From: Candidatus Latescibacterota bacterium
GTDB taxonomy: Bacteria; Latescibacterota; UBA2968
Direction of reading: 5' to 3'
DNA length: 64,000 bases
Assembly (NCBI GenBank): GCA_965204745.1
Contig: OZ242010.1
Span: 1,632,001 to 1,696,000 of the forward strand
A model generated the notes under the pieces. The model was not told where the DNA came from and made no database searches. It was given only the letters and a program-made list of their open reading frames with translations. Below, one piece after another: positions 6,306 through 10,408 of this stretch. Made by a program: the position numbers and the translations under genes. The number at the start of each line of letters is the position of its first letter. The stretch's first letter is position 1.

Positions 6306-6339
6306 AAAAAAGAGCGACGGGGCTTTCGACCCGCCGCTC
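6306..6339 (-). terminator. Intrinsic terminator closing the sigma/mini-RNAP operon
   Basis: GAGCGGCGGG/CCCGTCGCTC stem plus T6 on minus strand, 11 bp after the stop. Confidence 0.85.
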
Positions 6340-6350
6340 GGTTGTGCGGT

Positions 6351-9300
6351 TCATCGAGGCGAGATGGGCAAGCCGACAAATAATCGGGTGTATTCGTCGG
6401 TGAGGGGGTCGCGTTCGTTTTTTTGTGCGGCGCGGGCAAAGACGACGCCCGGGGTTTCTGACCTGCGGGCGCGGGCGAAGACCCCATAGCCGCCGGGCGC
6501 GCTCTGCAATTCCAAATCGCTCTGAATTGCCAGCATCTCGGCGAGCGTGTTGGACAACCCCCAGCGCGCGCCAATCGCGCGGGCAAAAAGCTCCTCGGGG
6601 GTCAGCCCTTCTCGAAAACCGCGCTTCACCGGGATGAACTCGCCCCGGGCGTTTCGCACGCTGCCCTGCGGGGCCACATAGAGTCTGAGTTGCAACAAGG
6701 TCCCGCGCGCGCCACTTTGGACCAAGAGGGCGGGCACGCCGAGTTCATCGTCGTCATAGCCGCGGAATTGCGCCAACGCGGCCGACACCTCGTCCGGATA
6801 ATCGCGCCAGGCATCGGGGTCGTCGTCCGCTGGCGGCTCGGGCCACGGGAGGGATGCGCCGATGAACGCACTCATGGACGCGCCGGTTTTGCGCGCTGTG
6901 TCAAAGCCCAGGGCTTGCAAGCGCGTTGCCAAATCGAGCGCGGCTTTCGCGCCATCGCGTGCCATGGTGGCTGCCAGCCACGCCATCACTTGATTCCCGT
7001 CGACAAATTCCCCTTCCCGCGTGACCTGATCGCCCACTGCGGCGCTGATTTCCCGCAGGCCCGCGTCTGTCATGCTCATCAGCGCGAGGCCGAACAGGGC
7101 GTCGTGTGTGGGATGTACTTTTTCGCGCATAATCAGGCCCGGATCGCGCGTCAAGTGGGCAATGGCAGACAGGTGATCGCCTGCGGACGCCTGGCCTTCG
7201 GCGGTCAGGGGCACAAAGACCGCCACTTGGTCCCCGTCAAAATCGAGATTCATCAAGGCGCAAAGCCGGATGCACACGCGAATCGCGTCGCCGGCAACGC
7301 GCACCGGGCGACACGCCACAAACGCGGTTGGCGACACCGCGGGCCTGCGGAGCACAACGGCCCACAACTCGGCCATCGCCGCGTCCAAAGCCGCGGTTGC
7401 TTTTTGCGACCGCCGGCTCACTTCTTTTGCCCCCACTGCGCGTGCGGCAAAAGGGCCAAACAGGGTCCACGCCATGGCTTCGGGGATGCCGACTTGATCG
7501 TATCGCAAGTCGGCCCCCGGCACGGCGACGGACCGGCCGCTGAACAATGCACGGGTGTAAAAGCGCGCGCCCGGCAAATCGCAAAAATCGGCAACGCGCG
7601 CGCCCAGGGTTTTAAGCCCGCGCTGGATCAAGACCTCGGGCGCGGCATTGGCGATCATCTCGGTCAAGCGGTTGTTGGCCGCTTGCAAGGCGCGGGGCGC
7701 GTCGCTGCCCACATGGGTGAGGGTATGCCCGGACAACCACGGATGCGGCACCGGGCGCGCCAGCGCGATGTCCCCCCCGCGCTTCAGGGAAAATGTTGCG
7801 CCGTGGTCGTCCAATGCGACCGTGATGCCGCGGCTGTCCAACTGCTCGGTCAATTCTTCAAATGCTGGCGATGGCGCGGCCGGGACAACGGCCCCTTTGG
7901 AGACGCGCTCGGCTAAGGTGGCGGCATCGGATCGACTTGCGGAACACGTATTGAACAGATCGCGGATGACCCCAAACGCGCCTGCTTCGCGCAGGGCCAA
8001 AAAGTCCGCCTCGCCCACTTCTTGACCGGGCCGGCCGGGCGCGACCCCCATGTGGATTTTGTCTTGGGTGTTCGACCACGGGATCGCCATCGCCTTCACG
8101 GGCCGGCCGGGCGCGACCCCCATGTGGATTTTGTCCGCGGCCAGATGCGACGTGCGGCCCCAGTACACCCAGCCCACGGTCGTGCGGCGCAACAGGGGTT
8201 CACCGTTGAGGCGCAGCGCGTCCATGCCGTCTTCGGGCAAGCCGTGTCGCTTCAACTCGGCGCGGATTTCATCGTCTTTTGGCGCGGCAAAGATGGGCGC
8301 GATCACCGGCTCGCCTTTGGCTTTTGCAATGCGGCCCATGACGGCTTCGCGCACCTGCCCAAAGTTGAGGCGAGACACCAGGCCGCACACGCTCATGATG
8401 AGTTCCACAGGCGTGCCGTCGGACAGGGTGGGCATTTCGTCGTCGGGCACAATGCGCGATACCACGCCCTTGTACCCGTGCCGATTGCTGAGTTTGTCGC
8501 CCGGGGCGACGCGGTTGGGTTGCATCATGCGATGGGCCGCGGATTCGCTCAGGACGAGTGCGTCTTCGTGTGCGTCCTCATCCCATGCCATGAACGCGGT
8601 GAGCAAGTTGTACCCAGTCCAAAAATGGGGATCGCGCGGTTCGCACCCGGTTTGCACCAGCGCGGGTTCGGATTCCAATACCGCGCCGTCGTATTGCGCG
8701 TGGTAGGCATGCCACGCGCCGCGGTCATCGCGCGGCATATCGGGGCCTGGCGCGCCGATCCACTGGCGCATCATGTTCACGCCCATCAAAACGCGATTCG
8801 TGTCATCGTGTTCCAAAAACGGGGTGACGGACGCGCCAATGCCCACGCGCTTTTCGGGCGAATCGTCTTCGATCACCAACTTGCCATCGCGGATGGTCGC
8901 GCCCTGTGCCACCTCCAAAATGCGGGCGATATTCGGACCTTCGGGCGTGCAATAGGGGCAGACGCGCCCATCGTGAGATGGGTGATACCCGTTTGCCAAC
9001 CCCTCGTCCTGATCGAGAATGGGGAGCAATGTTATCCGCCGCAAGTGAACGTGCATGTCGTGAGAGTTGGTCGCCTGCAAAAAGTGAGACGTGGATTCAT
9101 TCGTGAAAAATGCGCGAATCCAATCGCCCAATGGCATCCACGTCGCAACGCTGTTTTCGAGCATGTTGGGCATCCCATCCAACCGGCGGGCGATATAATC
9201 GCGCAGTTGCTCGCCCACGCAATAAATATCGGCACGCGCCAAATCCACCTCGGTGGGCACGGGCACCACGGTGCGGAAAAAGCCATCCACCTTAAACCGC

Positions 9301-9506
9301 CCGTCGTCATCGGGTTGCGGGATGTTGTCGTACACCACCTCTGCGCGGCCCTGAATCGCCAGATGCAGTTCGCAGGTGTATTCGCTTTTGGACACCACGC
9401 GATACCCGGCCAGCGACACCTTATCGGCCAGCAACTCGGGCAGTCCTCGTTGCACAAACCCATCCCAAGAAATTTTGTGCCACGGTGCTTTCACTGCGAG
9501 ACCCAT
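6351..9506 (-). CDS. Single-chain miniature RNA polymerase-like protein (reduced beta-beta' fusion)
   Basis: Ordered RpoB blocks ([19 protein letters not shown]; [20 protein letters not shown]; HEDALVLSE; [14 protein letters not shown]; SRLNFGQ; HLAADKIH; GQEVGE) then RpoC blocks (NNRL..AAPEVLI; SGRSV; NLDFDGDQ; SGARG; FREGL; GARWGL). Intact ORF with AGGAGG RBS. Confidence 0.9.
8027..8135. repeat. Perfect 37-bp direct repeat (8027-8063, 8099-8135) around 35 unique bp, in frame
   Basis: CGGGCCGGCCGGGCGCGACCCCCATGTGGATTTTGTC twice, 72-bp period; duplicates [12 protein letters not shown]. Confidence 0.95.
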
Positions 9507-9531
9507 TTCAACTTCCTCCTATTGTGTGATC

Positions 9532-9558
9532 GGGTGAACGCGGAGGCATCGCCCCTAC
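9532..9558 (-). repeat. GTAG-type REP-like palindrome between sigma and mini-RNAP genes
   Basis: GTAGGGGCGATGCCTCCGCGTTCACCC; related copy at 37075-37100, degenerate copies near 40443 and 59542. Confidence 0.7.
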
Positions 9559-9560
9559 GA

Positions 9561-10154
9561 TTACCGAAAATCCTTCAATCTCGAAAATTCCGATGCGAGT
9601 TGCTTGCGGGCGTGGAACAGGCGGGATTTGACCGTGCCTTCTGGAATCGCGAGCCGTTCGGCGGCTTCTCGGAGCGTGACCTCGTCTTCGTACACCAGTT
9701 GAAACACCTCGCGTTTTTCCTCGGGCAATGCGTCGATCAACTCCTGCAACACGCGCCGCTGTTCTGCGCGTTCCAGTTGCACGTCCGGGCCCAGTGCGGC
9801 GCGGTCGATCATCCACCCCGGAACCGGGCGTTCTTCGTCCTCATCATCGTGGAGCGATGGCATGTGCAAGGGCTGTTCCCTGCGGCGATTTTTGCTCCGC
9901 AACTGATTCAGCGCGAGATTTTTCGCCATGCGAAACAACCACCCGCGAAATGACCCGCGCCCAGACCATTGCTCGGCCCGATTCCAAACGCGGAGAAAGA
10001 CCTCTTGCGTCAAATCATCCGCCGCACTCGCGTCGCTCACCATCCAATATATCAACTCGGTCACTCGCGCCTGATAACGCGCAAACAAAAGCGAAAACGC
10101 CGCTTCGTCCCGCGCCACAATTCGCTGCATTAAGATGGCGTCCGAAGGCGTCAT
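9561..10154 (-). CDS. ECF-family RNA polymerase sigma-70 factor
   Basis: Region 2 (ADDLTQEVFLRVW...FRGWLFRMAKNLALN) and region 4 (LREAAERLAIPEGTVKSRLFHARKQL). Confidence 0.95.
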   Translation of the reverse strand: MTPSDAILMQRIVARDEAAFSLLFARYQARVTELIYWMVSDASAADDLTQEVFLRVWNRAEQWSGRGSFRGWLFRMAKNLALNQLRSKNRRREQPLHMPSLHDDEDEERPVPGWMIDRAALGPDVQLERAEQRRVLQELIDALPEEKREVFQLVYEDEVTLREAAERLAIPEGTVKSRLFHARKQLASEFSRLKDFR

Positions 10155-10380
10155 GCGTGCCTCACCTCGCTACCCTGTTGCCTGTGCGTGCCCATCCTTT
10201 CCGCCCATCCGCCCGTGCGGCCTCACCTCGCCGCCGCCCGTGCGTGCCCGGCCCCAAGCGGTCAGCGGTAAGATGGGCGTTTTGCCACGAGCGGGGTACA
10301 ACTGGCGATAGCCCGTTCAAAGGTGATCCGGGTGTAGTCCAGAGATACAAGGAGAGACAGAAAAGTCGGTCTGTGGGGAA

Positions 10381-10408
10381 TGGACACCGCTCGGTGCGGA
10401 GGGGTTCA
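10381..10408 (-). promoter_or_regulatory. Candidate ECF-type promoter for the sigma/mini-RNAP operon
   Basis: TGAACC-N16-TGTCCA on minus strand (AAC in -35, GTC in -10); short motif, could be chance. Confidence 0.35.

Follow-up and report, generated by a model that had tools for sequence, protein, structure and literature searches.

The subject of this report is a two-gene operon on the reverse strand of a 64,000-nucleotide (nt) stretch of DNA (the window) from a Candidatus Latescibacterota bacterium (contig OZ242010.1, assembly GCA_965204745.1). The operon encodes a sigma factor of the extracytoplasmic function (ECF) type and, directly downstream, a single-chain RNA polymerase (RNAP) of 1051 aa, here called mini-RNAP, in which parts of the bacterial beta subunit are followed in one frame by parts of beta'. 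Bacterial transcription is generally ascribed to a single multisubunit core enzyme of some 400 kDa, and the single-chain relatives described so far are, to our knowledge, enzymes of phages, prophages, linear plasmids or eukaryotic RNA interference (RNAi). The features of the locus, in window coordinates, are as follows.

10373..10413, reverse strand: cognate ECF-type promoter, with the -35 element TGAAC at 10408-10404 and the -10 element (C)GGTGTC at 10389-10383, spaced by 16 nt (GAAC-N16-GTGTC) as in relatives; the top genome-wide match to the position weight matrix (PWM) of the promoter
10155..10372, reverse strand: leader from promoter to sigma start, about 220 nt, G-rich and unusually long
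9561..10154, reverse strand: ECF-type sigma gene, 197 aa, assigned by Pfam and NCBIfam
9507..9560, reverse strand: spacer of 54 nt between the sigma and mini-RNAP genes, with the ribosome binding site AGGAGG at 9520-9515, 8 nt before the mini-RNAP ATG
6351..9506, reverse strand: open reading frame (ORF) of the single-chain mini-RNAP, 1051 aa, beta-derived over residues 1 to about 575 and beta'-derived from about 576 to 1051
8466..8567, reverse strand: active-site elements of the beta barrel, namely the ED pair E314/D315 at 8567-8562 and a 12-residue motif with K338 and K346 at 8501-8466
8027..8135, reverse strand: lineage-specific insert of 24 aa in mini-RNAP (a 12-residue unit twice), a 72-nt partial duplication
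7584..7694, reverse strand: coiled coil of the beta' clamp helices, residues 605-641 (NNRL...AAPEV...), from AlphaFold2 helices, BLASTP and hhalign
7227..7250, reverse strand: catalytic NLDFDGDQ, residues 753-760, with D755, D757 and D759, the Mg-binding Asp triad of the beta' barrel, from the sequence and the family census
6504..6599, reverse strand: bridge helix, residues 970-1001, an AlphaFold2 helix
6302..6339, reverse strand: intrinsic terminator closing the bicistron, about 12 nt past the mini-RNAP stop codon

An earlier reading made from the letters of this DNA alone (the sequence-only reading) had described one intact ORF with RpoB-like blocks running into RpoC-like ones. The mini-RNAP frame is indeed open throughout, with 0 internal stops, and Pfam places RNA_pol_Rpb2_3 (residues 142-203), Rpb2_6 (E 9.2e-36) and Rpb1_2 (E 2.6e-12) in it in beta-to-beta' order. 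NLDFDGDQ, which that reading put at 7230-7250, maps to 7250..7227, in close agreement, and the strong ribosome binding site it reported corresponds to the AGGAGG of the spacer. The ECF sigma gene it placed 54 bp upstream carries Sigma70_r2 and r4_2 domains, scores 119.5 bits with TIGR02937 (cut-off 42.9), and ends at 9561, 54 nt from the mini-RNAP ATG at 9506. The terminator it saw downstream is a hairpin at 6339-6312 on the reverse strand, after the stop codon, with a 10-bp stem containing 8 GC pairs followed by a T-run (TTTTTTGTAT). The end coordinate it gave for the whole element, 10408, falls exactly on the T with which the -35 element TGAAC of this promoter begins.

The source genome is a single contig of 5.48 Mb, and a normal rpoB (1815.5 bits) and rpoC, whose presence elsewhere in the genome the sequence-only reading had left to be confirmed, both lie on this contig about 0.87 Mb from the module. 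Mini-RNAP has 40% of the length of these two open frames together (1270 + 1369 aa). The host's true RpoB and RpoC pass the respective equivalog cut-offs, whereas mini-RNAP does not: the NCBIfam models for rpoB and rpoC hit it piecemeal and far under their cut-offs (TIGR02013, 178.8 vs 801.15 bits; TIGR02386, 104.3 vs 963.5), and the models for full-length rpoBC fusions are not reached (NF011417, 180 vs 4632 bits; NF007172, 158.6 vs 5372). With the host beta subunit it shares 33% identity over 237 aa. Three blocks align: residues 130-259 correspond to beta 441-638, residues 279-321 to beta 719-761 with the ED pair, and residues 332-564 to beta 1019-1244, the C-terminus. Most of beta 1-440 is gone, and so is the beta lobe. 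The flap, a domain of the sandwich-barrel hybrid motif (SBHM) type that takes up about 257 residues of the host subunit (beta 762-1018), is represented by about 10 residues that join the flanking blocks; the same gap is seen in alignments with PDB chains, and the AlphaFold2 model has no domain between the strands at 317-320 and 338-341.

The beta' half is related to host beta' by BLASTP (E 2e-25) and by hhalign with a profile of 65 family members (probability 99.9, E 9e-32), and residues from about 604 to 997 align to beta' 248-759, ending inside the bridge helix. Both clamp helices, SGRSV, NADFDGD, SGARG and the start of the bridge helix are kept. The clamp helices, at residues 605-619 and 624-641 of the AlphaFold2 model, align to host beta' from 248 to about 292 by both BLASTP and hhalign, and their residues N611, R613, P623, L626 and L634 are invariant or nearly so in the family. 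A stretch of about 20 residues that follows them, the rudder region, is deleted, and neither beta' 1-234 nor anything past 759 (of at least 1317 residues; trigger loop and jaw) has a counterpart, only about 50 residues remaining after the bridge helix. A by-eye lead that took the C-terminal tail for half a trigger loop was given up as unsupported: the C-terminal 56 aa match host beta' 701-1100 with a BLASTP E of 2.4, the hhalign alignment ends at beta' 759, and a trigger loop could not be detected. Three characters of the two-barrel RNAP superfamily are found, namely the DxDGD triad, two basic residues (GDK...NRHG.KG) with the ED pair, and the bridge helix. Of 65 members, 62 have all three Asp of the triad (D755 in 63, D757 in 65, D759 in 64), and E314 is kept in 63, D315 in 65, K338 in 63 (Arg in the other 2) and K346 in 64, so that the statement of the sequence-only reading that the catalytic Asp residues, both beta Lys and the ED pair survive at about 40% of the length agrees with the family census.

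AlphaFold2, run on a 65-sequence alignment, gives mini-RNAP a mean predicted local distance difference test score (pLDDT) of 92.0 and a predicted template-modelling score of 0.91. The model drops below pLDDT 50 only at residues 470-491, which is the lineage-specific insert, predicted to be disordered. At the DNA level this insert consists of two perfect 37-nt copies, 8027-8063 and 8099-8135, and it is missing in the other 17 sequences of an alignment of relatives, although one locus encoding a 91% identical protein likely shares it because the match spans query residues 1-1051. In a Foldseek search against PDB the best 50 matches are all beta or beta' chains, or models, of bacterial or plastid RNAP (best E 9.9e-25), and predicted viral structures match more weakly than these PDB chains. 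The RNAP beta/beta' fold, which the sequence-only reading had named as a point to be checked, is therefore recovered by AlphaFold2 and Foldseek.

Homologues are numerous. A protein search returned 581 hits among 8000 candidates scored, and among the best 120 clusters, which were inspected, 113 are 1002-1069 aa long and 7 are shorter (593-990 aa); wherever the source databases supply a name it is 'hypothetical protein', with the exception of one Pfam-domain description. Among contigs representing one genome per species, 179 of 200 pattern matches were confirmed, which together with the at least 120 protein clusters answers the question of intact homologues raised by the sequence-only reading. 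The best 79 of these loci (1.11 Mb) were analysed, and according to their record titles they come from Latescibacterota, Poribacteria, Gemmatimonadota, Planctomycetota, Chloroflexota, Armatimonadota and Hydrogenedentota, that is, from at least seven phyla. Against close relatives the ratio of nonsynonymous to synonymous substitution rates (dN/dS) is 0.11-0.19 along the whole length of mini-RNAP and 0.11-0.22 for sigma, which indicates purifying selection and not the neutral ratio that the sequence-only reading had named as a refutation. A FastTree tree of 74 members, unsure in its deep branches, largely follows the phyla, with Poribacteria (15 rows) and Chloroflexota (6 rows) each forming one clade. 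Within the phylum of the window the gene is patchy (65 of 168 genomes) and usually single copy, and it occurs in 20 of the 20 other genomes of the genus. Of the matching records from phages (33), plasmids (68) and IMG/VR (59), none contains a full-length member. A defence or phage affiliation was considered and dropped: mini-RNAP has no PADLOC hit, and its PHROGs hits are to families of cellular-type beta and beta'.

The sigma factor consists of a sigma2 domain (residues ~5-93), a linker (RRRREQPL...VPGWMID; ~94-122) and a sigma4 domain (~123-196), recognised by Pfam as Sigma70_r2 (E 8.3e-19) and r4_2 (E 6.9e-16). With sigma2 and sigma4 as its only domains it belongs to the ECF type (group 4), in keeping with the conserved -35/-10 autoregulatory element in front of it, but it reaches no subfamily or equivalog cut-off of NCBIfam (best PRK12515, 127.9 vs 236 bits). 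Over 41 orthologues its mean column identity is 62%, which is unusually high, and the linker is included in this conservation. Predicted alone by AlphaFold2 (pLDDT 80.7) the protein forms two helical domains, and residues 97-113 of the linker fall below 50. A linker that is conserved and yet disordered in the model of the protein alone is what would be expected of a segment folding on a partner. The main text of the ECF reclassification (PMC7826278) contains neither Rpb1/Rpb2 nor rpoB/rpoC nor 'beta subunit'.

Linkage of the two genes, the feature on which the sequence-only reading had made its interpretation depend, is conserved. An orthologous sigma gene (44-88% identical) lies upstream on the same strand at 78 of 79 loci. 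Measured by tblastn, the gap does not exceed 157 nt in 60 of these; it is 230-603 nt in another 7 and 1.3-2.4 kb in the remaining 11. Co-occurrence in the 168 genomes of the phylum is near-perfect both ways: mini-RNAP is found in 65 and the sigma orthologue in 64, with both in 62, mini-RNAP alone in 3, sigma alone in 2 and neither in 101. Of the three genomes with mini-RNAP alone, one (G154) is cut by a contig edge, and another (G151) has a decayed locus with 15 sigma codons left and a mini-RNAP lacking residues 16-93. The third, G148, has an intact mini-RNAP (C1:3661099-3664236, 1387 bits, no stops) and is the one clear exception to the pairing. Of the two with sigma alone, G161 is again at a contig edge and G026, a 64%-complete genome, gives a weak 127-bit hit. 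A further genome (G076) carries two modules, each with its own adjacent sigma gene. Pairwise identities of sigma and of mini-RNAP correlate with r = 0.96 over 2701 pairs, and with 0.61 when only the 2299 pairs of less than 60% identity are taken. Four genomes (G155, G164, G170, G171) have open frames of 1194-1244 aa, which were considered as sigma::mini-RNAP fusions and rejected, the sigma lying in another frame that abuts the mini-RNAP start in G164, G155 and G171.

Clustering of the ORFs of the 79 loci and the window revealed no further conserved neighbour such as an anti-sigma gene. Some loci have additional genes of more limited distribution. A 597-aa ATP-binding cassette (ABC) transporter is inserted between sigma and mini-RNAP in the 11 loci with the 1.3-2.4 kb gap (e.g. 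L009:2683-4476), and homologues of it occur in 15 loci in all and not in the window. Upstream, a 315-aa DksA/TraR zinc-finger protein is encoded in 19 loci (e.g. L009:18-965), and downstream, a BlaI-like repressor with a BlaR1/TonB_C protein in 15-16 loci (e.g. L010:9308-12141); both are likewise absent from the window.

The sigma gene is preceded by a promoter of its own. In 76 of 78 upstream regions a motif GAAC-N16-GNGTC (consensus TGAAC[C/T]T...CGGTGTC) lies no more than 220 nt from the sigma gene, in 75 of them with the same spacing, and the distance from the end of the motif to the start codon has a median of 22 nt. A PWM was built from 37 non-redundant sites and used to scan both strands of the host genome, with the reversed genome as control. 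The promoter of the module is the best match in the 5.48-Mb genome (22.5 bits); the next scores 17.2, and the maximum of the reversed genome is 17.56, so that at 18 bits or more there is 1 real hit, the module promoter, vs 0 in the control. The second-best match, tried as another target of sigma, was rejected because it is located within a coding frame and scores less than the control maximum, and two other exact TGAAC-N15-GGTGTC sites score less than 14 bits, one of them being antisense inside a 695-aa gene. Other spacings of the half-sites, from 5 to 44, were not clearly enriched in this genome (the exact pair gives 0-8 counts per spacing; a relaxed half-site pattern peaks with 104 at spacing 33). 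When five other genomes were scanned with the exact pattern, the module site scored 29-41 bits in four and all other hits at most 22.2; in the fifth (G004) the module site was unmatched because it has the variant GCGTGTC.

Over the 79 loci, 71 of 72 matches of at least 18 bits are the sigma promoter, a figure with some circularity, those sites having served to train the PWM. The 72nd (24.2 bits) lies directly before the mini-RNAP gene of L054, the sole locus without an adjacent sigma. The genome of this locus has a canonical promoter-sigma-mini-RNAP module on another contig, and one sigma therefore serves two promoter-mini-RNAP units there. At the loci with an inserted ABC transporter a second promoter before mini-RNAP was sought, and none of 18 bits or more was found. 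So far as is visible in these sequences, the regulon of the sigma factor would consist of the mini-RNAP gene or genes. In the window the leader between promoter and sigma start, about 220 nt, contrasts with the distance of about 22 nt from motif end to start codon in most relatives. A 16-nt direct repeat (GGGGCCGGGCACGCAC), noticed by eye, brackets the promoter together with the beginning of the leader (10240-10429, reverse strand); long leader and repeat together suggest a local rearrangement or insertion.

Among known systems the nearest are the bacterial beta and beta' subunits themselves, with which mini-RNAP has in common the beta-to-beta' order, the catalytic motifs, the fork, a switch-2-like SGRSV, the clamp helices and the bridge helix. 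From these subunits and from their full-length fusions (PRK14844 and PRK09603 types) it differs by its 40% length, its own sigma and its coexistence with a normal rpoBC, and by its sequence it clearly descends from bacterial beta/beta'. Enzymes of the YonO type (QDE-1, gp66 of crAss-like phages, gp64/gp96 of P23-45) are likewise single chains of about 100 kDa with both barrels and no SBHM flap in the parts of the literature consulted (PMC5467207, PMC7824862, PMC10770324), where YonO has been shown to be a DNA-dependent RNAP in spite of losses of this kind. They have, however, very distant homology to the cellular subunits, belong to phages, prophages or eukaryotic RNAi and have no sigma, a distinction from mini-RNAP that is drawn by description. 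Mini-RNAP is beta/beta'-like beyond the barrels (fork, beta C-terminus, clamp helices, bridge helix), chromosomal and strictly paired with an ECF sigma and the promoter of this sigma, and its lack of a flap is most likely a secondary loss because of the clear descent from beta.

Orf6 of the yeast killer plasmid pGKL2, a 982-aa Rpb2::Rpb1 protein, resembles mini-RNAP in order and nearly in size, with about half of both subunits deleted, according to the part of the source consulted (PMC2919709). Compared by description, it differs in its eukaryotic descent, in its place on a cytoplasmic linear plasmid, in keeping the SBHM (PMC7824862, as far as consulted) and in having no sigma. The RNAPs of jumbo phages (phiKZ, AR9) are also reduced bacterial beta/beta' enzymes without alpha and omega, AR9 having an extra promoter-specificity subunit, but they are phage-encoded, consist of four or five polypeptides, keep the flap SBHM (PMC7824862) and are not known to have a partner gene of the sigma-70 family. 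Autoregulated ECF modules share with the present one the sigma2-sigma4 composition, a self-promoter with an AAC -35 and a GTC -10 about 16 nt apart, and a partner gene directly downstream. In those modules the partner is an anti-sigma factor, whereas here it is a polymerase, no regulon is detectable beyond the module and the sigma, linker included, is unusually conserved over at least seven phyla.

The sequence-only reading knew of no description of this architecture, and no published account of the sigma/mini-RNAP family was found in the literature searched, which included the consulted parts of PMC2919709, PMC7826278, PMC8131849, PMC7824862, PMC8195603 and PMC10770324, although an earlier mention is possible. 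Other fused RNAPs were encountered on the way. Two IMG/VR viral contigs encode larger beta::beta' proteins of 1930 aa (L123:2718-8510, forward strand) and 2007 aa (L114:2763-8786, forward strand), which are 25-28% identical to mini-RNAP and contain a complete Rpb2_6 with the flap kept, Rpb1_1, Rpb1_2 and Rpb1_5 (plus Rpb1_4 in L114). The ESM Atlas holds unnamed single-chain clusters with Rpb2_6 and Rpb1_2, 1221-1787 aa long, and with the two viral proteins they make it seem that there are several families of fused RNAPs not yet described.

That mini-RNAPs constitute a real, functional family coupled to a sigma factor can be stated with high confidence. The suggestion of the sequence-only reading, a second transcription enzyme or RNAP-derived regulator paired with its own sigma, is supported in this general form, while the simple picture of a second RNAP with a regulon does not fit, since the cognate promoter of the sigma is essentially unique in the genome. 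In the explanation proposed here, the ECF-type sigma would recognise one promoter (TGAAC-N16-GTGTC), located before its own gene, and the resulting transcript would carry one other product, the 1051-aa single-chain RNAP. The host core RNAP with this sigma would fire the promoter first; it most likely starts expression, the promoter having ordinary ECF geometry and the operon ending in an ordinary intrinsic terminator. Mini-RNAP, predicted from its sequence to be catalytically active, would then bind the same sigma via the kept clamp helices, the conserved disordered linker of sigma would replace some of the lost contacts, and a minimal holoenzyme initiating at the same class of promoter would result. 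Such an orthogonal triad of sigma, polymerase and promoter would have positive feedback, which titration of sigma by the mini-enzyme would limit.

The clamp helices are the canonical dock of sigma region 2, and their main known partners are sigma2 and NusG. Their retention in an enzyme that has discarded about 60% of beta/beta', together with the conserved linker, favours sigma as a subunit of the mini-enzyme, which is about as probable as its opposite. A self-contained, autoregulated sigma/mini-RNAP module in which sigma also acts as the initiation factor of the mini-enzyme likewise has an even chance of being correct. The wider proposition, a second autonomous cellular transcription system consisting of a single chain of about 115 kDa, its own ECF sigma and one private promoter, working without flap, alpha, omega and trigger loop in at least seven phyla, is put at just under even chances.

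A number of observations weigh against this explanation. The absence of a detectable trigger loop is one of them. Another is that 3 of the 65 members have Asn for Asp in the triad, as NANFDGDQ in P0120 and P0071 and as DFDGNH in P0090; P0120 represents a cluster of 24 sequences, and these members may be inactive or may use an altered metal site. The beta flap, dock of sigma region 4, is absent, and canonical holoenzyme geometry is therefore impossible. The 16-nt spacing of the promoter and the hairpin-U terminator suit the host enzyme, and a flap-less enzyme without an RNA exit channel would not necessarily need them. The promoter is near-unique in the host and in four of five other genomes, and because of this the sigma-directed mini-enzyme would have no evident target but itself. 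Finally, G148, with its intact mini-RNAP, has no sigma orthologue in its whole genome (best ECF hit 87 bits) and no cognate promoter in the 2.5 kb upstream of the gene.

In an alternative explanation, sigma would be only an on-switch acting through the host core, and mini-RNAP would work independently of sigma on templates other than promoters (single-stranded DNA, nicked DNA or RNA); the products might be primers, R-loops or complementary RNA, as with the flap-less single chains YonO and QDE-1. With a unique promoter, sigma seemingly has no task beyond the expression of mini-RNAP, and both the geometry of the promoter and the terminator are suited to the host enzyme; an intact mini-RNAP without sigma is found in G148, and the second mini-RNAP copy in the L054 genome uses a promoter with sigma in trans. 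The beta' N-terminus and the rudder, which hold elements that separate RNA from template, have no counterpart in mini-RNAP. The SBHM flap, also missing, binds sigma or TFIIB and is absent from RNA-dependent two-barrel enzymes and from YonO, as stated in the consulted parts of PMC8131849 and PMC7824862. This alternative nevertheless leaves it unexplained that the clamp helices are kept and conserved though most surface modules are lost, that the sigma linker is conserved across phyla and that sigma and mini-RNAP are lost together (G151) and duplicated together (G076), and a dedicated sigma would be an unusual means to control a single gene; it is considered less likely than not, but is the main rival. 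A regulator mimicking the RNAP core is improbable. In that case mini-RNAP would hold sigma via the clamp helices in an anti-sigma role or serve as a decoy for inhibitors that bind RNAP, and catalysis would not be under selection. ECF modules usually carry an anti-sigma gene after the sigma gene, and mini-RNAP occupies that very slot in the operon, keeps the sigma2 dock and has no other conserved partner gene in the 79 loci and the window, the module having no other evident transcriptional output. But the Asp triad (62 of 65), both Lys, the ED pair and NRHG, kept over at least seven phyla, would be useless to a sponge, a two-barrel fold of about 1000 aa with its bridge helix is held at dN/dS 0.11-0.19, and a sigma without a regulon leaves an anti-sigma nothing to restrain.

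Less probable still is a mobile origin, in which mini-RNAP would be encoded by a cryptic phage, a plasmid or another such element and would transcribe the genes of that element, like YonO of SPbeta. The known single-chain two-barrel RNAPs do come from phages, prophages and linear plasmids (PMC2919709, PMC5467207 and PMC10770324, in the parts consulted), the patchy distribution in the phylum (65 of 168 genomes) would suit such an origin, and viral contigs do hold other fused beta-beta' proteins. Against this, the matching phage, plasmid and IMG/VR records (33, 68 and 59) contain 0 full-length members, no conserved phage or mobility gene adjoins the module, and the gene is usually single copy, gives no PADLOC hit, has a tree that largely follows phyla and is present in all 20 other genomes of the genus. 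A misassembly, or a remnant of rpoB-rpoC in decay, might be suggested by the odd architecture alone but is scarcely conceivable, given that architecture and length recur in independent assemblies (113 of the best 120 clusters at 1002-1069 aa; 179 loci) and that the frame is open, under purifying selection and confidently folded in prediction.

A 136-aa ORF at 5944..6354 on the reverse strand, overlapping the mini-RNAP stop, was tried as a third gene of the operon and rejected, as it has no tblastn match in the 79 loci; it is placed outside the module because it has neither such a match nor a family hit and because the terminator and a strong sigma-70-like promoter lie between. This promoter (TTGACG-17-TATAAT, 6242-6214, reverse strand) serves a small downstream gene (5944-6242, reverse strand), which probably starts at an internal Met at 6186 and encodes 80 aa. 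No Pfam, NCBIfam, PADLOC or PHROG hit was obtained for it; its segment '...CDFSGGVLGKH...' resembles, as judged by eye, what we take to be small antitoxin-like proteins. Upstream of the module, a gene for a repeat-rich, apparently secreted protein of 2493 aa (11547-19028, reverse strand) ends about 1.1 kb before the promoter. Farther away, a match to Rfam RF02514 (5' ureB small RNA) at 33838-34132 on the reverse strand (131.6 bits; the gathering score is 40) is probably due to conservation at the 5' end of the gene for the urease beta subunit and not to a small RNA.

Mini-RNAP is an enzyme derived from beta/beta' at about 40% of their size; it is chromosomal and under purifying selection, and in at least seven phyla it is inherited together with a sigma and a promoter of its own. 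Should it work with this sigma, it would provide a minimal parts list for sigma-dependent initiation, raising the question whether the flap is dispensable and the linker a substitute, and it would be a compact natural orthogonal expression system. If the system is autonomous, it would be a natural orthogonal triad of polymerase, sigma and promoter, and the smallest sigma-dependent RNAP known. If mini-RNAP is instead active without sigma, the bacteria that carry it would have a new kind of cellular RNA synthesis, such as priming, R-loop formation or RNA copying, placed under the control of a sigma factor with a single target.

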